Assembly: GCA_041644975.1 (NCBI GenBank)
Contig: JBAZQX010000001.1
Location: forward strand, 39,274 to 103,273
Length of the DNA: 64,000 nt
Source of the DNA: Candidatus Doudnabacteria bacterium
Lineage (GTDB): Bacteria > Patescibacteriota > JAQUNI01
Direction of reading: 5' to 3'
Shown in pieces: positions 28,327 through 48,937 of the stretch. The notes under the pieces were generated by a model. It was not told the DNA's origin, searched no databases, and saw only the letters and a program-made list of their open reading frames with translations. Position numbers and translations under genes: made by a program. Position 1 is the stretch's first letter, and every line of letters starts with the position of its first letter.

Positions 28327-28343
28327 ACTTTTTAAAGGGATGC

Positions 28344-29801: not shown

Positions 29802-29811
29802 AAACAGAAAA

Positions 29812-29850
29812 AATGTTGCATGGGTTAAAGCAACAAAAAATTAAGAGGTT
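29812..29850 (-). terminator. candidate rho-independent terminator after cysN (minus-strand stem tgttgc/gcaaca followed by TTTTTTCTG)
   Basis: The hairpin plus U-run read on the minus strand directly after the cysN stop. Confidence 0.35.
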
Positions 29851-29915
29851 TTATTATATTAAAATTTTCAAAAAAATCAACTAAAATTTTGTTCGTTTCA
29901 CCTTTCCTCAACTTT

Positions 29916-31205: not shown

Positions 31206-31230
31206 GGGCAGACTCCTCGCTAATAGACGA
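31180..31230 (-). promoter_or_regulatory. 14/16-bp inverted repeat (tcgtctgtgagcgagg / cctcgctaatagacga) bracketing the cysN start codon and Shine-Dalgarno GAGGAG; a possible translational control hairpin
   Basis: Direct reading. The 19-nt loop contains the ATG (31203-31205). The SD lies partly in the 5' stem arm. Confidence 0.4.
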
Positions 31231-31348
31231 AAAGGGAGTTTCGTAATTCATAGAAGTTAATTATTTTTTGTTTTTTGCATTCAATATATGAGCGCCTTAA
31301 ACCACCTTTTTTTTCCTTGTAAAAAAGCATTTTAAAAAGTGGGCGGTT

Positions 31349-32149
31349 TCACATATAGCCAAGGGAGCGCAATTTTTGCATCATATAAGCAGTTTCTTTA
31401 TCTTGAGCTCTACCTGATCGTTCGGCGATTTTAGTAGTTTCTAGCTCCGCCACAATCTCTGCGAGCGTAGAGGCATTGGAATCAATAGGCATACAACAAG
31501 GCTCACAGCCAATACTGCGGTAACGTTTTCCTTCTTTTGCAAAATATAATTTGACGATTGGGATATTTTCTCTTTTTATATAAGCCCAAATGTCTTTTTC
31601 TGTCCAATGTAAGAGAGGGTGCACCCGTATATGTTCCGATTCCTCTTTTTTGTTCTTATATTGATCCCAAAGTTCAGGGGGTTGATTTTTGTAATCCCAG
31701 GTGAATTCCTGATCGCGAGGGGAAAAATATCTTTCTTTGGCTCGGATTCCATGTTCGTCGCGTCGGATTCCCAAAAGAAGAGCGTTCAATTTATGTTCTG
31801 CCATTATTTGCTTTAGCGCATTGGTTTTAAGTTCAGTGCAGCATTCTAGTTTGCCCTTTCCCGGGCAGACACCGCGCCCTAATGCTTCTTTATTTTGGCT
31901 AATAATTAAGCGCAGGTTCCACTCCAGAGCATAATGATCTCGGAATTCATAGATTTCTTTAAATTTAAAGCTGGTATCAATATGAATTACAGGAAAAGGA
32001 ACCTCGCCATAAAAAGCCTTACGGCAAAGCCAAATTAAGGTAGTGGAATCTTTTCCGATTGACCAAAGAGCGGCAATATCATGAAATTGTTTGTAAGCCT
32101 CACGGATGATATAAATACTCTTAGATTCTAATTCATCAAGATGTTGCAT
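31349..32149 (-). CDS. cysD: sulfate adenylyltransferase subunit 2
   Basis: The PAPS-reductase-fold SIGKDSTTLIWL P-loop and its overall length and pattern match CysD. Confidence 0.85.
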   Translation of the reverse strand: MQHLDELESKSIYIIREAYKQFHDIAALWSIGKDSTTLIWLCRKAFYGEVPFPVIHIDTSFKFKEIYEFRDHYALEWNLRLIISQNKEALGRGVCPGKGKLECCTELKTNALKQIMAEHKLNALLLGIRRDEHGIRAKERYFSPRDQEFTWDYKNQPPELWDQYKNKKEESEHIRVHPLLHWTEKDIWAYIKRENIPIVKLYFAKEGKRYRSIGCEPCCMPIDSNASTLAEIVAELETTKIAERSGRAQDKETAYMMQKLRSLGYM

Positions 32150-32197
32150 ATGTTTTGTTTTATAAGTTAAAAACTAAAATGACTGGATCTAGAGACT

Positions 32198-34831
32198 TTA
32201 TGGTTTTATTATATCATTTTTTACTTTTTTGGCTAGGATCCAGACAAGATAGCCGCAGGAGATGATAAAGAAGATACTAGATATAGTAAGACCAAGGTAG
32301 AATAATCTTTGGGGCCAGAATTCTACAGTTAGTGCAAAGTCATAACTACCATCCTGATTTTTAATGCAATTGCTTGGCTGCTCGCAGATTTTTTGAACGT
32401 CAAGCCACCAGGAATTAGCATAACCATTAACAATAAAATGTTGATCTTGAGCGAGGGGCTTCCTTCCCCAAGTTTCCCAGAAGGGTCCCCCTTTCAAATT
32501 TTCGTTTTGGATTGTATCTTGATAATTTTTAGAGATAAAAGCAATCTTATATTTTTCTAAATGATCTAGTTCCTTTTTTTCACTATTCAAAAATTGATAA
32601 TATTTGATCTTTTTTTCCCGACCGTCACCAAGGGTGGAAACCCAACCTTTTTCAATAAAGTGTGAGACTTCTTCTTTTTGCGCTTGATTTTCCTCGTTAC
32701 CCTCTAGAATTTTATAATCTTGAAGCAGTGAATCAAAGGAGTTGTTGTTAGAATAAGACAAATCTATATTTCTTTTGATTTGATATATTTTCCAATCTTT
32801 AGAAAAAGTTTCACTTAAAATGAGGGGAAAATTCTCTCTCGCTTTATGAATAAAAACAATATATTTGGTGGGATTTATCTTTTTGAATTCCAGGATTGGT
32901 TTTTCATTAATTCGCGTGGGTAAAGAACTGGTTTTTTGAGATTGTTCTTTGCTATCCGCAAGATAAATCGCGGTTGGTTTCAGGAGGTTTTGGGAGGATA
33001 GAACTTCGGGCAGATCTTTGGTGAATTGTGACGAAACCTTAATCTCTTCAGGAACATATAAATGAGGTAGAAAATAAACAGAGGAAACTTCATAGAGCTC
33101 AAGGGGGCCAAAAGATTGTACCAGATTAATGTCTTTTTCTTTTTCAAGATTTTCCTTAATTTCGCGCGGAGAATCCGAATTTTCATAAAATTGATCATCA
33201 ACATCATTTTCCAGAATTATGTATTGCATGTTAAAAAAGCCTGCAAGTTTCAATAAGGTATTGAAAAAGTCTTTCTGTTGTCTAATGCTGTAGAGCATTT
33301 GGTAAATAGGGTCAGAGATGCTTTTTTGGTAGGTGGCAAAGAATTTTTCTCCTAGATAGTAATATAAAGGATCTACTCCCTGATAATTCCATTTATAGGG
33401 AGTGAAATAGGTCCATTGCATAGGTAAGGCATAGGCGCGGAAAGCCATCTGTTTTTTATTTAAATAGGTGCTAATTTCGCGATAATAGAGAGGAATTGAT
33501 GTTTTGTTCGTGGCCAGGATGCCACTTTTATAATCTGGCAAGACTTGACCTTGCCAGAAAGGAAGAGCACACAGATGGATTACAAAAAGAGTTAGGAGAG
33601 CAAAAGCAAAGGCGTACTTCAATTTTATTTTTTCCATAATCCTATGGATTGCAATCCCTAGCAAGAGGCTAAAGGCAAAAATAAAGATCATGCCGATTTT
33701 ATCCAGAGGATTACGGAACATTGAAAAGGTCTCAAAGTGACTGAATAAAAATTTATAGATTGATCCTAAAGGTGGGTTGGGGCCATAGAGTAGGGCAAAA
33801 CTGACTAGACTAAGAATGCCGAAGATGAGCGTATATTTTTTATATTTATTCTTAGCGAAAGCAGAATAAGCCAAAATCGGGATTATGAATCCTAAAAGGA
33901 TGAAGAATGGCTGTTCATAAAGTGAACCGTAGGGATAGTAGAGATATCCTTTAAACTTTCCCCAAAATCCCCAGTGTCCCAAAAAGCGAAGACCATCGGC
34001 CATTTTGTAAAAAGAGTTAACCACGGCGATATGTTTGAGATTAGTGTCCGCCATTTGCGCAATCTCTTCTTGTTCATTAAAGAAAGCAGCGGTGTAGGGC
34101 AAGATAATGAGGGACCAGGTAAGAAATAAGGAGCCGCTTAAGAGAAGGAAATGCTGTATTTGTTTTTTTAGATCAACCTTCTTCCTTTGCTTGGATAGCA
34201 AAAGATTCATTAAAAAATAATAGACTACGATGCCAAAGATTAGGAATAAATAAACTGGATTATCTGCCGCGGGTGAGGCGAGAAAAGCGGTCAGCACTAG
34301 GAGGGCGCAGTCTTTTTTGGTAGGACGTTTTAAGATGCGGATGCAGAAGAGCAGAATGAGAGGCAAAAAGCCATAAGCGAAGAGCACCATTGCGCGTGGC
34401 CAAAGGAACAAAAAAGAAAAAACATTAAACATATAAAGATTTGCCGCCAAGAAGGCAGCCAATTCCCTTAATCGTCCTTTCAAAATATGCCTCATCAAAA
34501 TAAAGAAGGCAAAACCCGCGGTTAAAAGCCAGTAGGAAAAAAGTAACCGTTCAATTTCTAGAAGCGGTAGATTGATTTTATGGAGAAGATAAATCGGTAA
34601 TTGGTAAGCGGGCAGTAGAGCTGTACCTCGATCTTGAGCATAGCCCAGATAGACAGGATTCCAGGTAAAGATTCTGGTGCGCAGGGCATCCTCTGGAGAA
34701 AAAGTAAAAGCAAAATCTCCGATAGAAAGCCATAGTGTGTTTAACCAAAAAAAAGGCGCTAGTGCCTCCAAGAAGATTAAAATGAGGAATATTTTAGTTT
34801 GGTGTTTTTGAAGATATTGGTGAATGATCAT
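32198..34831 (-). CDS. YfhO-family GT-C-like membrane protein (N-terminal ~560-aa polytopic domain, extracytoplasmic domain, C-terminal TM)
   Basis: The architecture and the C-terminal block LSETFSKDW..IVNGYANSWWLD..LTVEFWPQ..TM are shared with the other YfhO-like paralogs. Confidence 0.6.
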   Translation of the reverse strand: MIIHQYLQKHQTKIFLILIFLEALAPFFWLNTLWLSIGDFAFTFSPEDALRTRIFTWNPVYLGYAQDRGTALLPAYQLPIYLLHKINLPLLEIERLLFSYWLLTAGFAFFILMRHILKGRLRELAAFLAANLYMFNVFSFLFLWPRAMVLFAYGFLPLILLFCIRILKRPTKKDCALLVLTAFLASPAADNPVYLFLIFGIVVYYFLMNLLLSKQRKKVDLKKQIQHFLLLSGSLFLTWSLIILPYTAAFFNEQEEIAQMADTNLKHIAVVNSFYKMADGLRFLGHWGFWGKFKGYLYYPYGSLYEQPFFILLGFIIPILAYSAFAKNKYKKYTLIFGILSLVSFALLYGPNPPLGSIYKFLFSHFETFSMFRNPLDKIGMIFIFAFSLLLGIAIHRIMEKIKLKYAFAFALLTLFVIHLCALPFWQGQVLPDYKSGILATNKTSIPLYYREISTYLNKKQMAFRAYALPMQWTYFTPYKWNYQGVDPLYYYLGEKFFATYQKSISDPIYQMLYSIRQQKDFFNTLLKLAGFFNMQYIILENDVDDQFYENSDSPREIKENLEKEKDINLVQSFGPLELYEVSSVYFLPHLYVPEEIKVSSQFTKDLPEVLSSQNLLKPTAIYLADSKEQSQKTSSLPTRINEKPILEFKKINPTKYIVFIHKARENFPLILSETFSKDWKIYQIKRNIDLSYSNNNSFDSLLQDYKILEGNEENQAQKEEVSHFIEKGWVSTLGDGREKKIKYYQFLNSEKKELDHLEKYKIAFISKNYQDTIQNENLKGGPFWETWGRKPLAQDQHFIVNGYANSWWLDVQKICEQPSNCIKNQDGSYDFALTVEFWPQRLFYLGLTISSIFFIISCGYLVWILAKKVKNDIIKP

Positions 34832-34837
34832 AGGTAC

Positions 34838-34865
34838 CTTGAATTACGAAATGACCTTAAAATCC
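34838..34865 (-). promoter_or_regulatory. conserved 28-nt element cttgaattacgaaatgaccttaaaatcc located 6 nt upstream of the start codon; a second copy is at 55691-55718
   Basis: 24 of 28 nt are identical between the two copies. The offset from the ATG is identical. It contains the near-palindrome GAATTACGAAAT. Confidence 0.45.
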
Positions 34866-34914
34866 ACTTTTAAAAAGAAAACTTTCCATTTTAATAAGGA
34901 GTAAAAGATGAATT

Positions 34915-36855
34915 TTATAATTCACCGTAGGTAGTAAAGGAGTGCAATTTTTTTGCAATCCCTAAAGAGATTCGGGATATAAAATAAGCGCTAAAGATGG
35001 TAAATAAAGGTATTAAGGGATAGCGGAAACGAGCGTCACCAAAACCTAAAATGATGATGGTGGCGAGGTATAGTAAAATTAAATTTAGGGAAAAGATGGC
35101 AAAAAGATTGTTTTTTGCAAAGAGATTAAAGACAAGACCTAAACTGCCAGTGACAAGGACAAAAAGATAGAGCTTTTGGGCGAGGTAAATAATATAACGG
35201 AAGTATTCTTCAGAGAGTTTGCCTAGATCAGAACGTGTCGGAATATCTACGCTTGGCTTAAAAAGAATCTCTATTTTTTTAATCCCTACTTCAATAAATT
35301 GTTGAGGGTGATTGAAGATATGTTTTATGCCGAGTTTTAAATAAATTTTGTCTGACAAAGCTTCTGCTTGGGGAGAGGTAGGATAACGTAACTCTTTTGT
35401 AATTCCCGCCTCTTGAAGATATTCTTCCGTAGGCCAGTTCCCGATTCCCTGTGACCAAGGGTTATTGCCTAATATTACATTAATCCCTGAAGTGGACACT
35501 AAAACTATTTGGCCGCTCACCAAATAATTGCGTATGGTCCAGGGGGCAATAAGGAGAAGACCAAATAAAGAAACAAAAAAGGTAATCTTTAAACTCCTTA
35601 CAAGATGTTTTTGGTAAAAGAGATAGCTAAAAAATATCACCAAGGGCAGAAAGAAAAAAGCCGGCCTAATCAGAGTGGCTATCCCCCAGAAGAAACCAGC
35701 GGGAATGATGTAGCGCCAATATATTTTTCCGCTTCGCCAGAAACCATGGGTTGCGGCGGGTTTTTTAATTTGATACAGTAAAAATAGAATAAAGAATAAA
35801 AGGAAAAAAACAAAAAGCACCTCGGTCAATAGTGTGGAGATATAAAAGATATTTTCTAAATAAATAGCGTAAATAAGAGAGCCAGCCAAGGCTACTTTTT
35901 GTTTAAAGTACTGCTTGGCAATCAAGTAGACAAGCAAAACATTGATAGCCCCCACAATAATTTGAAGAACGCGGACAAGCTGGTAATTGTCGCGCGAGAA
36001 CATAAAGACTGACGCCAAGAAAAGAGGGTAACCTACAGGGCGGTACATTGAGTGGATTACGCCATAACCACTGTAAGTATGATCGTATGCTATACTGCGC
36101 GCATAATTAACATAAGAAGCAGCATCACTAATTGGTTTCATGGGCAGGATAAAGACCCAGAGGGTATTGATAGTGAGAGCTATACCTAGGATTATACACA
36201 AGTATCCTCGCATTTGCTTTTGAGGAACAAGGTAGATCGTAACTAGAATGAAAATGAAAAGGAGAGGGAGGAAGAGCTTTAATAAGCGGCTAAGCAGTAT
36301 AGATATTGTTCCCCACGGCGAGGTAGCTTCGTAAATATATATTTCGTTGATTTGTTGTAATTTGTCGCTGCTTTCTGTTTTCTGGATCCACAAGCGTATT
36401 TTGTCAGTCTGAATGGGATGGAGAGCAAAAAGGTGTACTTTGTAGTCACTTTTATTATTTTTGACCTCCAGATTATTTTTCCACTGATCGCCGTCCGCTG
36501 CCTGAATTTTATAATTTTGAGCCACGCGCGTTTTAGTAAAAGAAAGGTCTATCTTACTGATTTTGTGAGCCACGGGCCAGTTAATTTCGATCAGGTTGGG
36601 TTCATCGGGCGTCACCTTGCCATACCACCAAGTTTCAGGTGAGCCGTCAATCACACTTTTCACCGCTCCTCCTGTTTCCGGATTATTGCTATCTTGGGTT
36701 TGTTTTGCTCTGATCAGAGAGGATTGTGAAACAATATTTTGAATATCGGGAGTTCCTTTGAAAGTGAGGGTTAAAGTCAGTAAAATGATAACTACTAATG
36801 AAATAAGGAGAATATTCCAGATTTTTTTAAAATTTAAGTTCATGATTCTTTTCAA
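34915..36855 (-). CDS. GT-C family glycosyltransferase (PMT/ArnT-like, PMT_2) with an N-terminal extracytoplasmic discoidin (F5/8 type C) domain
   Basis: It has an N-terminal TM. SVIDGSPETWWYG...NLIEINW is an F5/8-C signature. DAASYVNYARSIAYDHTYSGYG...RPVGYPLFLA is a GT39/GT83-like first loop. It has ~11 TM helices. Confidence 0.55.
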   Translation of the reverse strand: MKRIMNLNFKKIWNILLISLVVIILLTLTLTFKGTPDIQNIVSQSSLIRAKQTQDSNNPETGGAVKSVIDGSPETWWYGKVTPDEPNLIEINWPVAHKISKIDLSFTKTRVAQNYKIQAADGDQWKNNLEVKNNKSDYKVHLFALHPIQTDKIRLWIQKTESSDKLQQINEIYIYEATSPWGTISILLSRLLKLFLPLLFIFILVTIYLVPQKQMRGYLCIILGIALTINTLWVFILPMKPISDAASYVNYARSIAYDHTYSGYGVIHSMYRPVGYPLFLASVFMFSRDNYQLVRVLQIIVGAINVLLVYLIAKQYFKQKVALAGSLIYAIYLENIFYISTLLTEVLFVFFLLFFILFLLYQIKKPAATHGFWRSGKIYWRYIIPAGFFWGIATLIRPAFFFLPLVIFFSYLFYQKHLVRSLKITFFVSLFGLLLIAPWTIRNYLVSGQIVLVSTSGINVILGNNPWSQGIGNWPTEEYLQEAGITKELRYPTSPQAEALSDKIYLKLGIKHIFNHPQQFIEVGIKKIEILFKPSVDIPTRSDLGKLSEEYFRYIIYLAQKLYLFVLVTGSLGLVFNLFAKNNLFAIFSLNLILLYLATIIILGFGDARFRYPLIPLFTIFSAYFISRISLGIAKKLHSFTTYGEL

Positions 36856-36948
36856 ACCTTGGATTAAGAAACGGCATTAAAATACTGTTTTTAGGAAAAA
36901 AATATTTTTTTCTTTATAGCAGATTAGCAAAATAAGACATGTAAAAAA

Positions 36949-37902
36949 TTAAAAGTAGAGTTTTTTCCGACGCATTAGACCGCCACTTTGCAAGAGCAAA
37001 ATAGTGTTGCCTAAGAGAACACCGAACCAAAAGGTACATAGACGGATGATCAGAATAGAACAGCCGGCTTGCGCTTTATTAATTCCGATGGAGGAAAGCA
37101 GGAATAACATAGTTCCTTCCATGGTACCTATTCCTCCAGGGAGAAAAGTAAGTGCTCCGATAATAGTAGAGAGAGAATAAATAAATGTACTCTCTAGGAG
37201 GCTTATGGGGGCCCTTAAACCCTGAAAGATCAAATAGAAGGCACAACTTTCTAAGAACCAGGCGATGACACTGCTACCCAATGCCAAAGAGGTTGATTTT
37301 GGGTTTAGTAATTGATAGGTGCTGAAGTATATTTTTTTGAGTTTTATAGCAATACCAGCTGTAATTTTCTTTTTTGCGAAGAAGCCAATAACACGAAGCA
37401 TTAATTTCCGCCAGCGGATCAAGATCAGGCAAAGGGTGAGAAATAAAAAAAGAAAGAAAGGAAGGACTAAACTGTAATGAAAGGCTAGGGATCCGATGAA
37501 GACGAGGATTACCATTGCTAGTAGGTCGGTTAAACGTTCCACAATGACTATAGGAGCAGACAGACTTATTGGTACCTCATTTTTTTTCTTTAAGAAATAA
37601 GATTTACTGAAATCTCCTAATTTTGCGGGGATAATACCGAGCCCGAAAGAAGCCAGAAAGATGATCAAGCTATCTTTTAAATTAACCTTGATTTTGATAA
37701 CGTGGCAATAATAATGCCAACGTCCAAAGCGGATCAAAGTTCCTGCAGTTATGGCACTTAAAATAAGGAATAAATAGGGCCAAGAGAAATTGTGTAGGGC
37801 TTCTAAAATTTGTTCAAGACCAGCATAAATCATCAAGATCAGATAAATCAAAATTGAGAAGGCTATTACAAACAAAATATTTCTACTGATATTTTTTTTC
37901 AC
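36949..37902 (-). CDS. flippase-like domain membrane protein (UPF0104 / lysylphosphatidylglycerol-synthase TM-region family)
   Basis: The 317-aa protein has 8 TM helices, an N-terminal MKKNISRNILFV... start and a C-terminal basic tail. The family assignment is by pattern only. Confidence 0.45.
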   Translation of the reverse strand: MKKNISRNILFVIAFSILIYLILMIYAGLEQILEALHNFSWPYLFLILSAITAGTLIRFGRWHYYCHVIKIKVNLKDSLIIFLASFGLGIIPAKLGDFSKSYFLKKKNEVPISLSAPIVIVERLTDLLAMVILVFIGSLAFHYSLVLPFFLFLFLTLCLILIRWRKLMLRVIGFFAKKKITAGIAIKLKKIYFSTYQLLNPKSTSLALGSSVIAWFLESCAFYLIFQGLRAPISLLESTFIYSLSTIIGALTFLPGGIGTMEGTMLFLLSSIGINKAQAGCSILIIRLCTFWFGVLLGNTILLLQSGGLMRRKKLYF

Positions 37903-37907
37903 TATTT

Positions 37908-39017
37908 TTATTTATTGATAATTTCAAAGGTTTCGGACCAGATTTCTAAACCTTCCCTGAATTTTTGTAAAAATGTGATCTCTTCGGGACCGAATAACTT
38001 ATCATTACTGAACTCTTGATTAAGATCTCTGACAATTTCTTTGAAGCAACCATGATAGTCTTGTTGGGTGAGTCTAATTTTGCGTAAAATATCCGTAAAG
38101 CGATCCGTAAGTTTGCTTCCCTCTCGTTCTTTATCTAAGTCTTTCCAAATATCATGAGGATTCCTTATTTGACGTACCAGAGGATAACCACAGGTAACAA
38201 AATGTCCTAGATGATCAGCAACTTTTTTCACAATATAGCTTGCCCAGATATCGTCATATCTTCCTATATAAGGACTTAAGAAATAAGCAGGTAATACTTC
38301 GCGGGAGAGTGCTGTATTTTGGGAGTTAAATGGAGACCAAGTTCCTTTGCCCAAAGCAGCCGTAGGCGCGTATTCTGCTTTCATCCATGTGGCTCGTACG
38401 GGATAATTTAGGCGGCTTACTGCATCCACATCAGGATCGTCTAGCCATAAACCAGCATTTACTACTACCTTACCTTTAATTTTTTCCTTAATGAAGTTAG
38501 ATTCCCCTGCCCTACCTTTTTGAGATGAGGGATAACCGCGATGATAGAAACAATTATTGTTAGCTTCTTGAAGGAACTCACAAATGTTGAGCCAGCCTGT
38601 TTTTGAACTATAAGATATGAGTTCTCTTTCCATTCCTATAATACTATGGCTACCCACAAAATCTTGTTCAGAGATTACAAGGTTATCATCATCAATGGTA
38701 ATAATAATATCTGCCCCGCGTTCATAGGCAAAGAGCAGACCTATATTACGTCTTTGGATAGAGTTAAAAGGTAAGTGCTCCCAGAGTTTAGGAAAGCGCT
38801 CAAGATAATTAAATTGGATATCAATGTCTTGATAATAGACGGGATAGTTAAATTTGGTTTGTAGCATAGAACAAAATTTGTGGGTATCCGGTGGACTTTT
38901 TTTATCGCCAATAACTACAAAGAATAGATCTTGATGTCCGTAGTCTTGAGCGTTTTTTGCATAGTCTTTGAGTAAGGTGGGAATATTGATGGTTGTGGTA
39001 ATAATTGCAGTTTTCAT
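37908..39017 (-). CDS. putative GT-A nucleotide-diphospho-sugar transferase, RGP/GT75-like
   Basis: It has the N-terminal IITTTINIP and IIITIDDDN (a DDD motif as in reversibly glycosylated polypeptides). The call is weak. Confidence 0.3.
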   Translation of the reverse strand: MKTAIITTTINIPTLLKDYAKNAQDYGHQDLFFVVIGDKKSPPDTHKFCSMLQTKFNYPVYYQDIDIQFNYLERFPKLWEHLPFNSIQRRNIGLLFAYERGADIIITIDDDNLVISEQDFVGSHSIIGMERELISYSSKTGWLNICEFLQEANNNCFYHRGYPSSQKGRAGESNFIKEKIKGKVVVNAGLWLDDPDVDAVSRLNYPVRATWMKAEYAPTAALGKGTWSPFNSQNTALSREVLPAYFLSPYIGRYDDIWASYIVKKVADHLGHFVTCGYPLVRQIRNPHDIWKDLDKEREGSKLTDRFTDILRKIRLTQQDYHGCFKEIVRDLNQEFSNDKLFGPEEITFLQKFREGLEIWSETFEIINK

Positions 39018-39065
39018 AATGGTATGAATTTATTGATAGGTCGTTGTTGATCTTATGTCTGTTTA

Positions 39066-39170
39066 TGTCCGCTTGAGGCGGATGACACAGGATTTCGCTT
39101 TTCTTAAAAAATCCCTCTTGGAGCCGATGCTTATGAACCGTAAGTCTATGGAGGGTTTCACTTCATAGAG
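39066..39170. repeat. conserved intergenic two-hairpin motif, copy 1 (tccgcttgaggcgga; ggatttcgcttttcttaaaaaatccc; gatgcttatgaaccgtaagtctatggagggtttcac)
   Basis: Related copies are at 51757-51830, 55746-55815 and a partial copy at 3262-3310. The first stem shows compensatory changes between copies (ggattt/aaatcc versus gggtttc/gaaaccc). Confidence 0.6.
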
Positions 39171-39268
39171 CACAATCTTTTTAAAAAAGGATACTTGGAG
39201 GAGTTGCTTTAAAAGAACCCTTTTCAAAATTTTTAGAGGGGAGAATTTGCAAAAATAGAAGCCTCGTT

Positions 39269-40372
39269 TTAACTTAAGTCCCTACCTAATTTTTTTTGAG
39301 CCATCATTAGAACCCGAGTTAAACCTTCTTGGAGAGAAATTTTGGGAACCCAATTTAATTTTTTTCGCATATAATTTATATCCGCATAACGCGAATATAC
39401 TCCAGTGGGTTTATCCACTAGGGGTTTAATTTGGGGTTTATAACCTGCGATTTCAGCATACATCTGTGCCACCTCTTTAAAGGTGGTAATTTTGCCCGAT
39501 CCTATATTAATACCACTACCATCTGTTATCTTTTGAATAGCTAAGAGCATAGCATCAATACAATCTTCAATATGGACAAAATCACGACCCTGGTCGCCTG
39601 ATCCCCAAATTACTACTGGATCGTCGCGCCGGGCTACCCTTTCAGCAATAGCGGGAATGGGATAAGTTAAATCTTGATCTTCTCCATAACCGGAAAAGGG
39701 GCGCACGCATGCTACCTTCAGGCCGTATTTTTCTACCGCAATTTGACTTAAGTATTCCCCTGTTAATTTACTCCAACCATAGGTCATATCTGGTTGGCCA
39801 AGGTTTATATTGAATTGGATATATTTTTCTTTTAGGGCTAGAGCGCGCTTTTTTGCTTGGAGATTGATAGGATAGGCTGCACTGGAGCTAGCATAAAGAA
39901 CGCGATCAATTTTTTGTTTATTTTGTGTAGCCCATAAGAAGAAAGAAGCGTCAATTGCTAAATCAATGGCTACAGCCATAGGATTGCCTTCGATTTTTGC
40001 TCGACCGCCGACGACCGAGGCAAGGTGAAAGACATTACTAAAATTAGGTAGATGATGTGCACGCGTAAAATTGCCCAAGCCCAGTTGTTGACTGAAGAAT
40101 CTTATGGCATCATCTTTAACAAAAGTAATTTTTTGTTTTTTGTTTTGATAAATATAAACATTAGCTTGATGTTTGATGAGGCGGAACTTCTCGGGAAGCC
40201 ATTTGGTGGGGTGCAGACCAGTACTTAAGTCATCAATAATCCAGATTGATTTACCTTGTTTAATTAAACGGTTCACTAAATGGCGTCCGACAAAGCCGCA
40301 ACCACCAGTGACTAGATGAGATTTTGTTTGGGATTGAGCCATAAATTTTGTTAGTTTAATTGTAAAAATCAC
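39269..40372 (-). CDS. NAD-dependent sugar-nucleotide epimerase/dehydratase (SDR)
   Basis: It has VTGGCGFVGRHLVNRL (Rossmann) and YGWSKLTGEY (YxxxK). Confidence 0.65.
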   Translation of the reverse strand: MIFTIKLTKFMAQSQTKSHLVTGGCGFVGRHLVNRLIKQGKSIWIIDDLSTGLHPTKWLPEKFRLIKHQANVYIYQNKKQKITFVKDDAIRFFSQQLGLGNFTRAHHLPNFSNVFHLASVVGGRAKIEGNPMAVAIDLAIDASFFLWATQNKQKIDRVLYASSSAAYPINLQAKKRALALKEKYIQFNINLGQPDMTYGWSKLTGEYLSQIAVEKYGLKVACVRPFSGYGEDQDLTYPIPAIAERVARRDDPVVIWGSGDQGRDFVHIEDCIDAMLLAIQKITDGSGINIGSGKITTFKEVAQMYAEIAGYKPQIKPLVDKPTGVYSRYADINYMRKKLNWVPKISLQEGLTRVLMMAQKKLGRDLS

Positions 40373-40509
40373 AAGTGTTATTTTGATTTTCTTATTAAGG
40401 GAATTGAGAAAAAATCCTCATTATTTTGTGCGTTAATATCAAGCTCAATGGTTTTTTCTAAGAGAAGAGTCACTTTTTGGCTGTAAATAACGCGAGGATT
40501 GCTCACAGT

Positions 40510-41247
40510 TTAATTATTATTTTTTAAAATTTGTTTGCGTTTATATCCCCACACCCGGAAAGCAATAGGGAAGTATTGAAAATTGCGCCAAAAAGAATTA
40601 GAGGATTGACCTTCAGCTCTTGACTGCCAGCGCGAGGGGACCTCTTTGATCCGGCAACCTAGCTTGATGGGTTTGAGCAATGTTTCCAGGAGAAAGGGAT
40701 GTTTTAATTCTTCCCATCGGATGTTTTGGATAAGAGAGGTTTTAAAAAGACGGAAACCATAAGTCATGTCAGTAAAATTTACACCATAGAGCAGGGAAAA
40801 GAACTTTTGAAAAATCCAGTTGGCTATGTATTTAGCCGGGTTGTACCCTTTGAAACCTCCACCTTGGATCCAGCGTGATGCCGTGACTATATCCCAATTT
40901 CCCTTTTTGATCTCCTTGATCATTATAGGAACAGTATCTGGATTTGTTTCCAAGTCACTCGCCATCATCAGGGCATAGTCACCACGTACTATTTGAAAGG
41001 CATCGCGCATCGCTCCTCCTAGGTAGGGCAGCTTCTGTTTATGTATTTTGATTAGTTGGGGAAATTTACTTTTGATCTTTTGGCAAAGGTCTACACTTTC
41101 AGGAATACTCTTGGGCGAGATCATAATGATGATTTCGTAAATGTCTTGAGAATTTGTTTTGAATAATCGCCTTAAGGTTTCTATGAGCGACTTGCGTTCA
41201 TTCATTACCGGTAGGATTATAGAAACTTTAGTTTTCATTTTTTTCAT
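40510..41247 (-). CDS. GT2 polyprenyl-phosphate glycosyltransferase (DPM1-like, soluble type)
   Basis: It has VSIILPVMNERKSL and MASDLE (DxD-type). It is 245 aa without TM helices. Confidence 0.7.
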   Translation of the reverse strand: MKKMKTKVSIILPVMNERKSLIETLRRLFKTNSQDIYEIIIMISPKSIPESVDLCQKIKSKFPQLIKIHKQKLPYLGGAMRDAFQIVRGDYALMMASDLETNPDTVPIMIKEIKKGNWDIVTASRWIQGGGFKGYNPAKYIANWIFQKFFSLLYGVNFTDMTYGFRLFKTSLIQNIRWEELKHPFLLETLLKPIKLGCRIKEVPSRWQSRAEGQSSNSFWRNFQYFPIAFRVWGYKRKQILKNNN

Positions 41248-41411
41248 TTATTTTAGTCATTTTGTAATTTAATCATATTAATGTAAAATATAATTTTATT
41301 TTAATTATGTCAAGGTTTTTATTTTGCCAACGAAAGGGACATTTTATTTTAACCAATTTAACCAAAACATTCTTTTACTCAAGATTCAATCTTTATAAGT
41401 AGTTATAATGT

Positions 41412-43178
41412 CTAAAAATTTATTTTAAGGTTTGCTTTCGGAGTTAATTTTTTCCACTCGCGGAAGGTTAGAAATGTAATAATCAAAAATATGAGGAAGA
41501 ATAAAAATAAACCGCTCCCTATTTGCAAGGCTAAGTGTTTGGAAATAGCTTTTTGGATATATTCGCTAGCAGCATATTTACCAGTAAAAGTAAGGGTATT
41601 GGTTAAAAAATAAAGAGTGAGAATAATTCCAGATAAAACCTTGCACTGGGAAAGCAAGAAATCAAGGGCTAAAAATAAGATCATCAAAGCAGTAAAGTAC
41701 AGATACGCCAGAGGCCCGTGGTAATGATAATAGCCAATCAAGCAAAGGTAAAAGATGAGAGGAAAGATTAAAAAAGCAATAGTGTATTTTTTGTATTTTT
41801 GCCAAGAGGATATAGCGCCATAAATAGTAAATGGAAATAAGAAAACACCTACTGCTCCCCAGAGACAGAATTCAGAAATTAGTTCCATAATTTTCCCTAA
41901 ATTATAGCCGGGAGGTAACATACGCAATTGTGCCAAGGGATTGGGGACAAAGAAAGTCATAAAATTGTAAAATTTATTGGCAATAATTGTTTGTGGAGAT
42001 GTGTGGGTTAAGCTTGAAAATATATTGCGAGGATCTGTCACAAGTTGATCGCTGTTTTGAGCTACAGGATATAAATATATTGAAAGAGCATTATTTTTCA
42101 ATCCTTCATGGAGAAGTATCCAATAGAACCAAGGGAGGAAGAAGATAACGGAAATCAGTAATAAATACTTCAAAGAGAGGAGTATCTTTTTTAGTTCTCT
42201 TGTTTTCAAATAAACAAAAAGATAAATTGCCAAAATGCCAATGATTGAGCAGGTGTGGGTAAAAAGAGATAAAGTAGCGATTGTGCCGATCAAGAAATAG
42301 TCAGCAGCCTTTTTGTTATCCTTTAAGAAAAGATAAAGTAAAGTAAATAAAAAATAGAGCGTTAAAATTTTCTGTGGCGAATAAATAGTCCAACGCAGCA
42401 TAAAAGGGGCGGATAAGGCGAAGAGGCAGCCAATTTTTGCTGTTTTGGGACTGAAGAGTTTAATGAGCAAAAAATAAGCAGGAATAATATAGGTTATATC
42501 AATGGCGAAGCAAAGCATCTGGTAAATAAAAGGATCGTTGCCAAAGATTTTTAAAAAAGGAATAGAGATGATTGCTAAATAAGGCGTGCGAGTTCCAAGC
42601 TGCCAACCACCGACCAGAAAAGACACAGCTTCCCCAGAATAGAGTTTATGGATTAAGGCTTGGGCCACGCCATACATCATATAATAATCAATCTGACCGC
42701 GATAGTGTTTGATACTATTTAGATAAGATGGAAGACCCGGAAAAAACATCTCGGGAACAATGCTGATTATTACCATCATCGTTCCGATGAGTAAAAAGAT
42801 CAGAGCGAGATAAACCCAAACAGGATGGTCAATTTGTTGGTAAAGCTTAAGGAACCATTTATTTTTTAGAAAGAAGAATAGACTAATAAGGCTCAAAACA
42901 AAATAAAGTATACTCCACAGAACAATTTGACCAGAGATGAGACCCAAAAGTGAAAAGATAAAAACGATTAATGTGCCGCACGCAAAACTTAGAATAACTT
43001 TGTCCTGTTCTTTAAAATTTTTGCAAAGTAGATTTAATATTGTATAGCCTGGTAAAAATATAGCAAGAAGAAAAGCTAAAGCAGGCACAAAATATTTCCA
43101 AGCGCCGCTTAAAATACTGGTTAATAGGATTATTAAGACACAGAGACTTAAAGCTGATTTCTTTAATATTATCTTCAT
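41412..43178 (-). CDS. polytopic membrane protein (GT-C-like glycosyltransferase or polymerase candidate)
   Basis: The 588-aa protein has ~14 TM helices. It lies next to the DPM1-like GT2 and the flippase-like protein. Confidence 0.3.
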   Translation of the reverse strand: MKIILKKSALSLCVLIILLTSILSGAWKYFVPALAFLLAIFLPGYTILNLLCKNFKEQDKVILSFACGTLIVFIFSLLGLISGQIVLWSILYFVLSLISLFFFLKNKWFLKLYQQIDHPVWVYLALIFLLIGTMMVIISIVPEMFFPGLPSYLNSIKHYRGQIDYYMMYGVAQALIHKLYSGEAVSFLVGGWQLGTRTPYLAIISIPFLKIFGNDPFIYQMLCFAIDITYIIPAYFLLIKLFSPKTAKIGCLFALSAPFMLRWTIYSPQKILTLYFLFTLLYLFLKDNKKAADYFLIGTIATLSLFTHTCSIIGILAIYLFVYLKTRELKKILLSLKYLLLISVIFFLPWFYWILLHEGLKNNALSIYLYPVAQNSDQLVTDPRNIFSSLTHTSPQTIIANKFYNFMTFFVPNPLAQLRMLPPGYNLGKIMELISEFCLWGAVGVFLFPFTIYGAISSWQKYKKYTIAFLIFPLIFYLCLIGYYHYHGPLAYLYFTALMILFLALDFLLSQCKVLSGIILTLYFLTNTLTFTGKYAASEYIQKAISKHLALQIGSGLFLFFLIFLIITFLTFREWKKLTPKANLKINF

Positions 43179-43215
43179 TTCAATCTTAGGAGGTGTTATG
43201 ATGTATATTTAAATT

Positions 43216-44301
43216 TCATCTTTTGTTTAATAAAATATCCAGAATTCTTTGTCCCGCGTGTCCATCTCCAAAAGGATTACGCCATTTTTTTTCTTTCCGC
43301 CATGCCATCTTTAAAGCGCAATTCAGAATCTTTTGGGGCTCGGTGCCGCTTAAAATATTTGCCCCTATTTCCAGGGTCTCGGGTCGTTCTGTGTTATCAC
43401 GTAGGGTAACGCAGGGCACTTTTAAGATACAAGCTTCTTCTTGGATGCCGCCGGAATCAGTTAAAATGAGTCTGGCGTTTTTTTCTAACAATAAAAAATT
43501 CAGATATCCTAAAGGCGGGATCAACTTTATTTTAGGTGTGATTTTGAGCCCGAAAAACTTGATCATTTTTTGGGTGCGCGGATGAATAGGGTAAACAATA
43601 GGTAAATGAAACTGATGATAAATTAGCTGCAAACCTTGCAGAATGTTTTTTAATCTTAGTGGTTTATCTGTGTTTTCTTGGCGGTGCACTGTGACGAGAA
43701 TGTATTGGCCTTTTTTTATTTTTAAACTTTTGAGGATTTCAGTTTTCCCTTGTTTGATTTTAAGATTTTGTTTTAGGGCATCAACAATGGTATTGCCTGT
43801 CAGAAAAATTTTTTCTTTGGGGATTCCCTCAGATTTTAGGGTTTTAACAGCATTCCTCGTAGGGGCAAAAAGATAATCCGAGCAATGATCAGCAAGGATG
43901 CGGTTAATTTCTTCCGGCATCTGACGGTAATAGCTGCGCAACCCTGCTTCTATATGGCCAAGTTGGATACCATTGAGTTTTGAGACGGCAAGCGCTGCCG
44001 CAAGGACGGTGTTGGTGTCCCCTTCGGTTAAAATAATACTAGGTTTTTCTTTGAGGAGCACCTTTTCAATTCTAATCAACATTTTTCCAGTCGTTTCGGC
44101 ATGTGTTCCTGATCCCACTTTTAAGTTATATTTTGCTTTGGGTAATTTGAGCTCCTGAAAAAAGACCTCACCTAGGTTCTTTGCGTAATGTTGATTGGTG
44201 TGCAGGAGGAAGAACTTAATTTTACGTTTTTGGCACTCTCTGATTATGGGTGACATTTTAATGATTTCCGGTCTTGTGCCTAAGATGATGCCGATTTTCA
44301 T
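43216..44301 (-). CDS. wecB: UDP-N-acetylglucosamine 2-epimerase
   Basis: KIGIILGTRPEIIKMSPI, DTNTVLAAALAVSKLNGIQLGHIEAGLRSY and the epimerase_2 pattern are present. It could alternatively be the NeuC-type hydrolysing enzyme given neuB/neuA nearby. Confidence 0.8.
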   Translation of the reverse strand: MKIGIILGTRPEIIKMSPIIRECQKRKIKFFLLHTNQHYAKNLGEVFFQELKLPKAKYNLKVGSGTHAETTGKMLIRIEKVLLKEKPSIILTEGDTNTVLAAALAVSKLNGIQLGHIEAGLRSYYRQMPEEINRILADHCSDYLFAPTRNAVKTLKSEGIPKEKIFLTGNTIVDALKQNLKIKQGKTEILKSLKIKKGQYILVTVHRQENTDKPLRLKNILQGLQLIYHQFHLPIVYPIHPRTQKMIKFFGLKITPKIKLIPPLGYLNFLLLEKNARLILTDSGGIQEEACILKVPCVTLRDNTERPETLEIGANILSGTEPQKILNCALKMAWRKEKKWRNPFGDGHAGQRILDILLNKR

Positions 44302-44346
44302 GGAAGATTAATGTTTATATACGCCTTCTATAAGGGAGGAATGAAT

Positions 44347-45522
44347 TTATAATTTTTTTAATAAATTGATTTCTGTTTGGGCAATTTTGTTCCAGTCGAA
44401 TTGTTGGACATATTGATAACCAGCCTCTGCCTGTTTCTTTCTTAAAAGATCATTTTTCAGATAATGATTAATCTTCATTGCAAATTCATCTTTTTTGCCC
44501 ACGGGAACAGATATAAAATTATCCTGCCAAACCATTGTTAGCGCCGGCAGAGCATAGGCGATTACAGGAAGCCGGCACGCCATTGCTTCGCCTATGACAA
44601 TTGCCCAATTTTCTTCATAGCTGGGGAGAATAAACAAACGGGCTTGGCTTAAAGTTTTGATCTTACATTCAAAGTCCAGAATCGGTCCTAAAAAGAGAAT
44701 ATTTTTTTCCAATTTTTGTTCTTTGATGCGAGTGCGGAGTGCCTTTTCATCTTCTCCTCCGCCAATAATAATTAATTGAGCATTGGGATTTTTTTGCATC
44801 ACTTGTTGCCAGATAGGAATTAAATCAAATACACCCTTTACTGCTTGGATTCTTTTCATAAACACAGCGGTATATTTTTTTTCGTGAATCTGTGAAGCTA
44901 GATGATTAATTTTTTGCAAATGGATACCGCATTTTACAGGAAAAATTTTTCTATGTGTAATTTTGAGCTTGTAAAGCTGTTCAGCTGTGGTTTCACTTAC
45001 TGCAAATATGGTTTGAGCAAAGTACTTGATTAACAGGACGCTTATTCTTTCGGCAATTAAGAAAAGGAGAGAATAAATAAGTTTTGATTCTTGACGTCGC
45101 CAGAATTTTAAACCGGGAACCCAATGTACGACTGCCGCCCATTTAATTTTTTTGCTCATACATTTAAGCTTTAAGGCAGGAATGATATCCCAAAGCAGTT
45201 CATTGGCGGAGTAAATGACGCCTTCCCGGAATTTTTTAAGTTGTTTTGGTATCCAGAACAATAGCTTTAAACTTAAGAAAACATAATCTAATTTTCCGGC
45301 ATAATTTCTTTTTTGAAATAAATTATAAGTGATTACATTCTTTAGGTTAAAGATACGGCAGAATGTTTCTCCCCCGCTAGAAACCAAAAGATGGGTTTCC
45401 CAATTATTTTTGAGCGCTCCCCTTATTATTTCAGCTAACCGCACTTCTCCCCCGGAAAATCCTCCCTTTGATAATTCTTTAGAAATGCCCGTACAGATAA
45501 AAAGAATTTTATTTTTCATCAT
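44347..45522 (-). CDS. GT-B fold glycosyltransferase (GT4/GT1-like)
   Basis: It has the C-terminal ENWAIVIGEAMACRLPVIA (EX7E-like) motif. Confidence 0.55.
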   Translation of the reverse strand: MMKNKILFICTGISKELSKGGFSGGEVRLAEIIRGALKNNWETHLLVSSGGETFCRIFNLKNVITYNLFQKRNYAGKLDYVFLSLKLLFWIPKQLKKFREGVIYSANELLWDIIPALKLKCMSKKIKWAAVVHWVPGLKFWRRQESKLIYSLLFLIAERISVLLIKYFAQTIFAVSETTAEQLYKLKITHRKIFPVKCGIHLQKINHLASQIHEKKYTAVFMKRIQAVKGVFDLIPIWQQVMQKNPNAQLIIIGGGEDEKALRTRIKEQKLEKNILFLGPILDFECKIKTLSQARLFILPSYEENWAIVIGEAMACRLPVIAYALPALTMVWQDNFISVPVGKKDEFAMKINHYLKNDLLRKKQAEAGYQYVQQFDWNKIAQTEINLLKKL

Positions 45523-45599
45523 TTTTTATTTAACTGTCTCCTTTTGAGTCTTAAGCTCTGGCCTTTCAGCATAGAACAGTAGAGTTTAATGAGAAAGAT

Positions 45600-46709
45600 T
45601 TAGTGGAAATAACTTTTTATTGCGTTCGTGATGTAAATAATTTCTTTTTCTTTTAGTTCGGGAAATAGAGGCAGAGAGAGAATTGTGGTGGCACATTCTT
45701 CCGTGATGGGTAGATCACCCTTTTTGTATTCTAACTCTTTGTAGGCTTTTTGGAGATGGATAGGAACGGGGTAATGAATTAAAGTTTGGATTCCTTTACT
45801 CTCCAGATGTTTTTTAAAGCCATCCCTATCATTTTGGCAACGAATTACATAGAGATGATAAATATGATATCCATATTTTGGTTTTTGAGGCAAGGATATT
45901 TGGGGAACATTTCTAAGCAGCTTTGAATAGAGATTAGCGTGTTTCATCCTTTGTTGATTAAAGGAATCTAAATGTTTTAATTTAAATCTTAAGATCGCAG
46001 CTTGCAGTTCATCTAGACGGCTGTTAGTGCCTTTCATAGTGTAAATATCCCTTTCTTTGCGGCCATAAAAGCGAAGCATTTTAAGCCTTTCGGCGATTTT
46101 TTTCTGATTAGTAACAATCATTCCCCCATCGCCGTAAGCACCGAGATTTTTTGTGGGGTAGAAGCTAAAACAACCAGTGATTCCAAACCCACCTACCTTT
46201 TTGCCTTTGTATTTTGCGCCGTGAGCTTGACAGGCATCTTCAATCACAGCAAGTTTATATTTCTTGGCAACTTTCAGAATGGGTGCCAAGTTACAACTTT
46301 GCCCATACAGATGGACAGGGATAATTGCCCTGGTTTTGGGAGTAATATGTTTTTTTAAAAGATCTGGATTGAGAGTGTAGAATGTCGGGTCAATATCTAC
46401 AAACACAGGTTTGGCATTGATTTGAGAGATTGCTGCCGCTGTTGCTTGGGCTGTATTCGCTACGGTGATTACTTCATCATCCTTGCCGATTCCCAAAACT
46501 TTCAAGGAGAGAGTTAAGGCATCAGTGCCCGAGGCTACGCCGATGGCAAACTTTACACCTATATATCGGGCGAATTCTTCTTCAAATTGTTCTACTTCTG
46601 GTCCTAAAATAAAGCAGTCTTTTTGGAAGACCCTTCGGAGAATACTATTAATTTCTTTACGGAAAATCCGGTATTGTCTTTTTAAAGTGAAGAAAGGAAT
46701 TTGCATCAA
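45600..46709 (-). CDS. DegT/DnrJ/EryC1/StrS-family PLP-dependent sugar aminotransferase (or dehydrase)
   Basis: It has ILGPEVEQFEEEFARYIG, GVASGTDALTLSL and the overall pattern of sugar aminotransferases. Confidence 0.8.
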   Translation of the reverse strand: MMQIPFFTLKRQYRIFRKEINSILRRVFQKDCFILGPEVEQFEEEFARYIGVKFAIGVASGTDALTLSLKVLGIGKDDEVITVANTAQATAAAISQINAKPVFVDIDPTFYTLNPDLLKKHITPKTRAIIPVHLYGQSCNLAPILKVAKKYKLAVIEDACQAHGAKYKGKKVGGFGITGCFSFYPTKNLGAYGDGGMIVTNQKKIAERLKMLRFYGRKERDIYTMKGTNSRLDELQAAILRFKLKHLDSFNQQRMKHANLYSKLLRNVPQISLPQKPKYGYHIYHLYVIRCQNDRDGFKKHLESKGIQTLIHYPVPIHLQKAYKELEYKKGDLPITEECATTILSLPLFPELKEKEIIYITNAIKSYFH

Positions 46710-47719
46710 GATAAATAATATTTTTGATAACGTCGGTAATAGTTAAATGTTTTTCTTAAACCCTCTTTTAGACTGATCCGAGGTTGCCAGTCTAAAGCTT
46801 TTTTGATCTTTTGAAAACTGCAATAGCAGTCGCCAATATCAATTTTTTTCTTTTCGGGTGGAAAGGGTGTTAATTTGTAATTGCCACGGCCATAAATTTT
46901 AATCATCAATTTTGCAATATTTTTGAGGGTAATAGGTTTGGGATGTCCTAGGTTGAAAATCTCACCATTAGTTTTCGGGGAAGCTGCAGCTTTTAAAAAT
47001 GCTTCCACGACATCATCTACATAATTTAAGTCCCGACGTTGCATTCCGTCACCAAAGATATTAATTTCTCCATTGGTCAAAATCTGATGGATAAACCAGC
47101 CGATGAAACCTTGCCGGTTATGTCTGATCAGTTGTCTGGGACCGTAAGTATTCGTTAAGCGGAGAGCAGTGGTGGGCAGGCCGTAAATTTTATTGTAGAG
47201 GATATGATACCATTCCCCTGCCATTTTATTGATGCCATTTATATCTGCAGGCCGCAGAATGTGTTTTTCATCCACAGGAAGATAGTCGGGGTGGCCATAA
47301 ATCTGGCGAGTAGATGCAAAAATAATTTTTACACCAGGATTATATTTGCGACAGGCTTCAAGGAGGGAAAGCTGACTGGCACAATTTATTTCTAGATCTT
47401 TTTGGGGATTTTCCATACTGTCAATATGACTCACTTGTCCGGCAAGATTAAAAATATAGTCACATTTTCGAACCAGGTATGTCATACTATGCTTATCGCG
47501 CATATCCGAAATATTAACTTTGACTTTGCGGCGAATGTCTTTAATATTAAAAATATTGCCTCCATGGTCCGGAACTAGAGAATCTATAATTAAAATTTTA
47601 GCATTAAGTTTTACTAGCCTTTGCGCTAGATTACTGCCAATAAAACCCAATCCTCCTGTAATCATTATTTTTTTGTGGGTAAAGGTATTTTTTAAATTAA
47701 ATTTAGATTTAGGTTCCAT
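46706..47719 (-). CDS. NAD-dependent sugar-nucleotide epimerase/dehydratase (SDR)
   Basis: It has ITGGLGFIGSNLAQRL (Rossmann) and WYHILYNKIYG/YxxxK context. Confidence 0.65.
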   Translation of the reverse strand: MEPKSKFNLKNTFTHKKIMITGGLGFIGSNLAQRLVKLNAKILIIDSLVPDHGGNIFNIKDIRRKVKVNISDMRDKHSMTYLVRKCDYIFNLAGQVSHIDSMENPQKDLEINCASQLSLLEACRKYNPGVKIIFASTRQIYGHPDYLPVDEKHILRPADINGINKMAGEWYHILYNKIYGLPTTALRLTNTYGPRQLIRHNRQGFIGWFIHQILTNGEINIFGDGMQRRDLNYVDDVVEAFLKAAASPKTNGEIFNLGHPKPITLKNIAKLMIKIYGRGNYKLTPFPPEKKKIDIGDCYCSFQKIKKALDWQPRISLKEGLRKTFNYYRRYQKYYLS

Positions 47720-47751
47720 ACTACTGAGTTTTTTTTCTTAATATACAATAT

Positions 47752-48927: not shown

Positions 48928-48937
48928 AATAATGAGA

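Follow-up and report, generated by a model that had tools for sequence, protein, structure and literature searches.

We identified a family of short hairpin repeats in a 64,000-nt stretch of DNA (hereafter the window; 38.6% GC) from the metagenome-assembled genome of an uncultivated Candidatus Doudnabacteria bacterium of the candidate phyla radiation (CPR)/Patescibacteria (contig JBAZQX010000001.1, positions 39,274 to 103,273). Each unit consists of imperfect palindromes with one sharp end, ...(G)GYTTCAC, and is 65-105 nt in size. The family adds a new, lineage-restricted member to the short palindromic intergenic repeats, a well-known class. Our favoured reading, to which we give about an even chance, is that of a dispersed repeat resembling repetitive extragenic palindromic (REP) sequences, the PATE derivatives of IS200/IS605 transposons or miniature inverted-repeat transposable elements (MITEs), which is co-transcribed with the surrounding genes and sometimes acts as a recombination anchor. 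Its members would be non-autonomous hairpin-type DNA that depends for its spread on recombination or on an enzyme encoded elsewhere, and would afterwards have been carried along, co-transcribed in operons and left to decay; effects on expression, for instance those of RNA hairpins in polycistronic mRNA, would be secondary. An earlier note, made from the sequence of the window alone, had implied a riboswitch or leader. We prefer a dispersed repeat to these because there are several copies in one genome, lineage-specific subtypes, erosion at an orthologous site, truncated and nested variants, overlaps with gene ends, and a single sharp terminus without terminal inverted repeats (TIRs) or target-site duplication.

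Three copies, c1, c2 and c3, carry the exact terminal sequence GGAGGGYTTCAC, all on the plus strand. Allowing up to one mismatch, this sequence matched the window four times against 0.34 matches expected, and the internal block GATGCTYATGARCYGT matched it three times against 0.12 expected. An independent repeat search regrouped c1-c3 as one family (D2) with 73% and 67% identity over 60 nt, and in leave-one-out searches of the window with nhmmer, a profile built from two of the three copies retrieved the third with an E-value of ~1e-12. The same profiles detected a fifth, more diverged member, c4, on the minus strand (6630-6693; E ~2e-4), for which a covariance model built from c1-c3 gave 22.6 bits and an E-value of 8e-4. 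With its speed filters off, this model found nothing else in the 64 kb. The earlier note had missed c4, while the four sites that it reported (c1-c3 and c0, a hairpin-only relative described below) were present as described, next to the genes that it had named, i.e., those for an RGP-like glycosyltransferase (GT), a B12/radical-SAM protein, a GT2-family GT and ScpB.

The full unit of c1-c3 has five parts, which are, from 5' to 3' on the plus strand, an optional hairpin H0, a stem P1 starting with GGRTTTCGC (block A), a single-stranded stretch with GATGCTYATGARCYGT (block B) at its end, eight bases that differ between copies, and GGAGGGYTTCAC. The 3' block can pair either with TGARCY, forming P2, or with GTNAGNNC, forming an alternative hairpin P2'. 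Each repeated unit contains two imperfect hairpins, and c1 contains three. The terminus TTCAC is invariant and abrupt in all five members, and the sequence beyond it is unrelated. H0 is GC-rich, intact in c1 and degenerate in c2-c4; its tccgc-N5-gcgga sequence indeed precedes copy 1 (39068-39082), as had been noted, and also lies within c0 (3277-3291).

Copy c1 (subtype A; 39066..39161, plus strand) is located in a 251-nt spacer between an epimerase open reading frame (ORF; 39269-40372, minus strand) and the ORF for the RGP-like GT (37908-39017, minus strand). In this copy, H0 pairs 39068-39072 with 39078-39082, P1 (GGATTT/AAATCC) pairs 39090-39095 with 39109-39114, block B (GATGCTTATGAACCGT) spans 39126-39141, P2 (TGAACC/GGTTTCA) pairs 39134-39139 with 39154-39160, and the sharp end TTCAC is reached at 39161. 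Copy c2 (subtype A; ~51726..51823 with a core at 51755-51823, plus strand) lies between another epimerase ORF (51843-52697, minus strand) and the B12/radical-SAM ORF (49969-51546, minus strand). Its P1 (AGTTT/AAATT, 51757-51761 with 51771-51775) includes one G.T pair, and its P2 (TGAGCT/GGTTTCA) two wobbles. Copy c3 (subtype A; ~55723..55815 with a core at 55745-55815, plus strand) has a P1 of GGGTTTC/GAAACCC (55746-55752 with 55762-55768), overlaps a Glyphos_transf ORF (55757-56968, minus strand) and is followed, 62 nt downstream, by the start of the GT2 ORF (54611-55684, minus strand). Copy c4 (subtype B; 6630..6693, minus strand), with the right end CCCGTGGAGCTTCAC and a minus-strand P1 of GGGGTTT/AAATCCC, fills most of the 92-nt spacer between two plus-strand ORFs (6199-6633 and 6726-7259).

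Two of the copies reach into the ends of genes. In the sense orientation of the neighbouring genes, the unit opens with GTGAAR... at or near the stop codon of the upstream gene. In c4, the TGA stop codon (6631-6633) of ORF 6199-6633 falls within the terminal GTGAAG, and the last 20 codons of the Glyphos_transf ORF, together with its stop codon (55757-55759), come from c3. The description of the copies as intergenic has to be corrected for c3 on this account. The upstream stop codon is found 19 nt before c2 and 107 nt before c1, and the next start codon follows the core after 32 nt (c4) to >170 nt (c2).

The fate of the c3 site in related genomes was assessed in loci ranked by how closely their YfhO protein matches that of the window (identities of 95% in L007, 90% in L002, and 76% in L003-L006 and L009). 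At this site, the 3' end of the Glyphos_transf gene and the only orthologous one that could be compared, L007 keeps GATGCcATGgGCtGTacccGTGGAGCTTCAC with three indels, L002 lacks the middle of the element and L003 lacks the terminal ~21 nt, while the flanks of the site are still 77-94% identical in DNA sequence. The remnant in each relative encodes a different short C-terminal tail of Glyphos_transf. The right end CCCGTGGAGCTTCAC is identical in L007 and c4, which separates two subtypes, a resident one with GTGGAGCTTCAC (c4, L007 and L002) and one restricted to the island described next, with GGAGGGYTTCAC (c1-c3, in or at the island).

A strain-specific surface-glycan island of 31.7 kb (24118..55800, minus strand; GC 0.33-0.39 against 0.39-0.44 in the flanks) separates the window from its relatives. 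All of its genes are on the minus strand and serve glycan biosynthesis or sulfate activation only, including the B12/radical-SAM gene, a DegT gene, CysD/CysN-like genes, several GT-C/PMT_2 genes and the RGP-like GT gene; neither an integrase nor a transposase gene was found inside it. The island is missing from the relatives of the 95%, 90% and 76% classes, in which the Glyphos_transf gene is directly followed by those for CTP_transf_3 and NeuB. DNA homology to the window stops and resumes at 55801/24117 in L007 and at 55809/24132 in L002. The right-hand break (55801-55809) falls inside the terminal hairpin of c3, which forms the right edge of the island, whereas c1 and c2 are internal; neither the covariance model nor the profile searches detected a copy at the left junction. 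Most simply, this would be a horizontally acquired island that brought its own copies, with a right crossover that then fell within or next to the resident copy. With a crossover at or within the element, the repeats probably also provide short portable homology for the reshuffling of glycan modules. The nearest homologues of the GT2 protein are 67% identical and are encoded next to tight spacers without the element, and a search for the Glyphos_transf protein in GTDB returned one locus, which was of the 76% type.

The same arrangement could be explained if the copies were recombination sites or junction scars of modular glycan cassettes, the element where the Glyphos_transf gene ends being att-like. 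Three modules (51.8-55.7, 39.2-51.5 and 24.2-39.0 kb) would then have been inserted in succession, each leaving a copy behind, as in tandem islands or an integron-like array. Consistent with such a history, c3 lies exactly at the right junction, c2 and c1 subdivide the island, a related sequence is present at the empty site of the relatives, the repeat border at TTCAC is sharp, and a variable spacer of fixed length (8 nt) separates conserved arms. Nevertheless, we consider this explanation improbable. The left junction has no copy, c4 and c0 are located far outside the island, and no integrase gene, of the IntI type or otherwise, is present in the 64 kb. The 8-nt spacers are wholly different between copies, which is incompatible with recent exchange by a tyrosine recombinase, and the genes on either side of c2 form one functional cluster in other CPR genomes. 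The attC sites of integrons are bounded by inverted core sites (RYYYAAC ... GTTRRRY), whereas the terminal blocks GGGTTTCGC and GGGTTTCAC of the repeat, i.e., the sense ends GTGAAAC.../...GCGAAAC, are direct repeats and deviate from this consensus; the modules here hold 4-10 genes. Separately, we ruled out a tRNA-derived att site, as the window contains no tRNA or tmRNA gene.

The smallest member, c0 (3266..3307, plus strand; 42 nt), documents the truncated and nested side of the family. It comprises a GC-rich hairpin, CCCACGCACCAGTCCGC-TAAAG-GCGGACGGCGCGGGG, and the tail TTTCAC, and folds as a strong imperfect hairpin of 16 bp (z ~-4.5) followed by that tail. The partial copy that had been reported near scpB is related to the family, but it aligns with the left part of c1 and is this unit of 42 nt. 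Its best alignment has 25 of 33 positions identical, starting at 39067 of c1 (maximum of 22 in 200 shuffles), and is colinear with the part from H0 to block A, H0 lying 10 nt from the left border of c0 and 11 nt from the terminal TCAC. Two origins of c0 are equally conceivable: it may represent the left portion of a full copy, or else a full copy that lost the stretch between the direct repeats GGGTTTCgc and GGGTTTCac.

c0 is nested in another small insertion, a host element of ~80 nt (3233..3359, with no strand assigned) that has the TIRs GATCTTTT / AAAAGGTC (GAYCTTTT/AAAAGGTC) and abuts the start codon of scpB. This host element is absent at scpB in a more distant relative, L015. A paralogue in L007 (1102-1392) abuts the start of the YfhO gene and is devoid of c0, while the YfhO site of the window (59575-59657) is devoid of the host element; the L007 paralogue carries a different nested insertion, GC-rich and 190 nt long (L007 ~1150-1340). 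Compared with this paralogue, c0 appears as an extra 42 nt with exact borders, the filled site reading TTTTCTAC/...TTTCAC/TGCAATT and the unfilled one TTTTCTAC/TGCAATT. There is no target-site duplication, with at most a 2-nt AC ambiguity. In our view, the nested c0, the ~80-nt TIR element and further palindromic insertions point to active small insertions in this lineage.

The distribution of the family is patchy. A degenerate pattern for subtype A had no match in GTDB (one genome each of 185,579 species) or in IMG/VR, and its single match among JGI metagenome contigs was inside a coding sequence and attributable to chance. Profile and covariance-model searches of ~250 kb of the relatives' loci recovered no copy except the L007 junction remnant, once this was in the profile, and the other copies in the fetched loci were solely on contigs of the same genome. 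A blastn search of plasmids gave no match. The 14-mer of subtype B had at least 120 viral matches, none of which was element-like among the matches listed; two matches to a c0-type pattern, in GC-rich viral coding sequence, were judged to be chance. We found nothing relevant in the literature on CPR intergenic repeats.

We then consider how the units fold, which is where the earlier note had placed its emphasis. In c1-c3, P1 and P2 show an A-T / G.T / G-C series with double-sided changes at three positions, and 92% of the cells are paired. The compensatory changes that had been reported for the first stem are real at two pairs of P1 (3-25 and 4-24), but covariation of the observed strength was matched by 67 of 500 column shuffles of the three sequences and is not statistically significant, with a similar outcome for P2'. 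Only three to five sequences entered these comparisons. RNAalifold gave -10.1 kcal/mol on the plus strand and -7.5 kcal/mol on the minus strand, both with a covariation term of +0.23, i.e., no bonus, and the folding z-scores of the full copies as single sequences were unremarkable. The proposal of a structure that is conserved in place of the primary sequence could not be upheld: in the c1-c3 alignment, the columns with the highest conservation belong to single-stranded sequence blocks no less than to stems.

The wobbles of the two stems are one-sided. On the strand antisense to the genes, every one of them (three in c2, one in c4, and one or two in L007) is a G.T pair, where the sense strand would have C.A, and in c3, c4, L007 and L002 a T-run follows the terminal hairpin on the antisense strand. 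If that strand is the active one, the repeat might act as a structured RNA or single-stranded DNA, for instance as a cis-antisense small RNA or as a terminator blocking antisense transcription into the upstream gene. This is in our view very improbable: no promoter-like site lies upstream on that strand, c1 and c2 have no T-run, the loop-closing pair 8-20 has the opposite asymmetry, and the better-folding strand in every copy is simply the G-rich plus strand of the window, which for c4 is the sense strand. Equally far-fetched, on our assessment, is a bolder variant that is hinted at by the one-sided G.T wobbles, in which sites folded on the antisense strand would be portable joints through which CPR bacteria assemble and exchange multi-gene glycan modules, belonging to an integron-like system with an unrecognised recombinase; the 31.7-kb island, which has one copy at its edge and others at two internal module borders, would be its product. 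We also considered an orientation bias related to lagging-strand (single-strand) DNA; this idea was weakened by c4, which is on the opposite strand while the GC skew stays positive.

A stronger competitor is a cis-acting RNA element in polycistronic glycan mRNAs, reading GTGAARCCCTCC...GCGAAAC on the sense strand. It could be an intercistronic hairpin module for mRNA processing or stability, or could recruit an elongation or antitermination factor, in analogy to JUMPstart/ops or to the LoaP/UpxY leader elements of polysaccharide operons. Random placement relative to genes and strands, which according to the earlier note would indicate a simple dispersed repeat, is not what we see in this window: all four full copies are in spacers between co-directional genes and share the same orientation relative to those genes, including c4 on the opposite DNA strand. 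Moreover, every full copy is found in a spacer of a glycan cluster, 10 kb of housekeeping genes to the left contain none, the blocks are conserved while the loops are variable, and three stem positions show the double-sided changes described above.

Nevertheless, we regard the cis-acting RNA as unlikely, albeit less so than the other alternatives. The comparison with Rfam that had been suggested yielded no family; nothing reached the gathering score in the whole window, and only noise appeared at E-values up to 10 around c1 and c3. The distances to the start and stop codons are variable, ranging for the stop from overlap to 107 nt, and spacers of 114-170 nt without the element occur in the same gene array. 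Read on the sense strand, three pairs of c2 become C.A mismatches, and the alifold energy of that strand is just -7.5 kcal/mol. Retention at orthologous positions would be expected of a cis-regulatory RNA, whereas the element where the Glyphos_transf gene ends is riddled with indels in L007 and has suffered partial deletions in L002 and L003, with the neighbouring genes still in place. Since almost all genes of the window are glycan genes, the association with glycan clusters has no background for comparison. Scans for promoter-like or terminator-like consensus sequences revealed nothing common to the copies. The JUMPstart/ops sequence is the leader of enterobacterial polysaccharide operons, and the repeat resembles it as a short conserved sequence that recurs beside polysaccharide clusters in a fixed orientation. 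In contrast to JUMPstart/ops, the copies are not promoter-proximal but occupy spacers or cover the 3' end of the preceding gene, and the orthologous loci of relatives have no conserved element. The ops element itself (GGCGGTAG) is absent from the window, in which we saw neither an RfaH-like gene nor another NusG paralogue.

Returning to the dispersed repeat, the family bears a resemblance to three known kinds of elements, which falls short of established membership in REP, PATE or MITE families. REP/BIME palindromes, together with RAYT transposases, are known from E. coli and Pseudomonas. The repeat shares with them short imperfect palindromes, a position in co-directional spacers just past stop codons, co-transcription, and modular and truncated variants; c0 alone, a GC-rich hairpin of 37 nt with a short tail, is very REP-like and fits REP in size and shape. 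The full copies, on the other hand, are longer (65-105 nt) and composite, with two different hairpins and conserved unpaired blocks, and have no conserved GTAG-type head; no inverted REPIN pairs and no RAYT gene were seen in the window.

MITE-like repeats that overlap gene ends and are co-transcribed include the Correia elements of Neisseria, BOX and RUP of pneumococci, ERIC of enterobacteria and the palindromic elements (RPE) of Rickettsia. The present family likewise falls in the ~100-nt class, is modular (cf. the A-B-C modules of BOX), resides in operons, has lineage-restricted subtypes and overlaps ORF termini, altering the C-terminus or supplying stop codons. It differs in its uniform gene-relative orientation, in the five copies counted so far, and in the absence of TIRs and TA-type duplications. 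As for the hallmarks of classical MITEs, the right end GGGYTTCAC has no inverted counterpart on the left in any copy, blocks A and C being direct repeats, and the borders of c0 show no target-site duplication.

In IS200/IS605 transposons and the gene-less PATEs derived from them, one strand carries palindromes in subterminal positions, and the ends have two motifs, one terminal and transposon-encoded and the other transposon-adjacent (PMC10055086). The repeat resembles these elements in lacking TIRs and, as judged from the c0 borders, target duplication, in its invariant TTCAC, which is comparable to the transposon-encoded motif, and, less clearly, in having hairpins near its ends on one strand. 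A further, merely suggestive likeness is a loose TYTAY to the left of four copies (TCTAC in c0, CTTAT in c1, CCTAC in c2, TTTAC in c3, and nothing clear in c4), which is comparable to the transposon-adjacent motif; the 10 nt that separate motif and hairpin are not conserved. Unlike in IS200/IS605, the right hairpin here overlaps the terminal motif, the left end is poorly defined, and the orientation follows the genes rather than one DNA strand (four copies on the plus strand and one on the minus strand). No gene for TnpA or TnpB was found in the window or in L012, a contig of the same or a near-identical strain (together ~75 kb of the genome inspected), and Rfam returned no omega-RNA or IS605-orfB match.

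Several points weigh against the dispersed repeat that we favour. We saw no transposase, integrase or RAYT gene in the window or in the fetched flanks, including L012, so that its mobilisation is entirely inferred, and the coverage of the genome amounts to only ~75 kb. The left border of the full copies is undefined, and P2 overlaps the terminal TTCAC, whereas the end hairpins of IS608-type elements sit a few bases inside. c0 provides the sole presence/absence comparison, and its filled and empty sites are paralogous rather than orthologous, which makes a deletion in L007 equally possible. Finally, a functional RNA would likewise show an orientation that is uniform relative to transcription (four of four full copies, with c4 uncoupling it from the DNA strand), as well as two stems with A-T / G.T / G-C series.

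The genomes of CPR/Patescibacteria are tiny, and the usual view is that they contain few repeats and little mobile DNA. In this window, small palindromic insertions of at least three families are present, and one family recurs at the operon spacers of the clusters for cell-surface glycans. Should these repeats provide short homology by which glycan modules are swapped, they would help explain the rapid diversification of surface glycans between near-identical episymbiont strains. They also matter for annotation, as they rewrite the 3' ends of genes (20 added codons and donated stop codons) and could pass for regulatory RNAs. The family has some value for the study of glycan-locus plasticity and of repeat content in CPR genomes.

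The conserved blocks can also be read as part of a small plus-strand ORF, ATG CTY ATG ARC YGT ... GAG GGY TTC AC, encoding MLM(N/S)(R/C)xxxEGFT. In that frame, the conserved blocks hold four substitutions, of which two are synonymous, and in c1 and c3 a GGAG precedes the second ATG by 9 nt. Other frames have similar synonymous counts, though, and c4 has no ATG at that place. As the repeat ends before any stop codon, the three peptides would have unrelated tails of 1, 5 and 11 residues after EGFT. Shine-Dalgarno-like motifs are also used by few genes of the genome, and we rejected the ORF as close to refuted. Within 20 nt upstream of the start codon, such a motif was seen in only 6 of 39 ORFs of the window (ORFs of >=100 aa with ATG starts, after removal of the nested pair at 29920-30312), and many ORF starts are preceded by AT-rich sequence only.

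Other small repeats were observed in the window. Tandem tracts of 7-8 nt are located in spacers just before the starts of glycan genes and fall into two families, D1 (ATTGTTCA-like; 1594-1632, 8743-8781 and 14662-14692) and D8 (GTAATCA-like; 2658-2682, 3631-3655 and 9945-9969). A GC-rich palindromic family (CTGCCCGCCATCGCTTCGC...GGCGAGGCGGGCGGG) is represented at 9258-9337 and 62322-62365, as well as by the nested 190-nt insertion at L007 ~1150-1340. The copy at 9258-9337 is in frame within a GT4 ORF (8756-9952), where it separates the two Pfam GT domains and has caaagtg heptad repeats on either side, and recalls the Rickettsia palindromic elements that reside inside genes. On a distant CPR contig, L010, a homologue of the B12/radical-SAM gene (6596-9478; 960 aa) lies beside a GT2 homologue and is an intein-containing radical-SAM gene, with intein and LAGLIDADG matches in Pfam. 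A long palindrome at 3628-3732, just upstream of a flippase gene starting at 3734, has a GC hairpin, CCGCCGCGAAGCGGCG, at its centre and arms made of GTAATYA-type heptad repeats. The L012 version of this palindrome has different arms and carries the hairpin segment in the opposite orientation, and this segment may be invertible or hypervariable.

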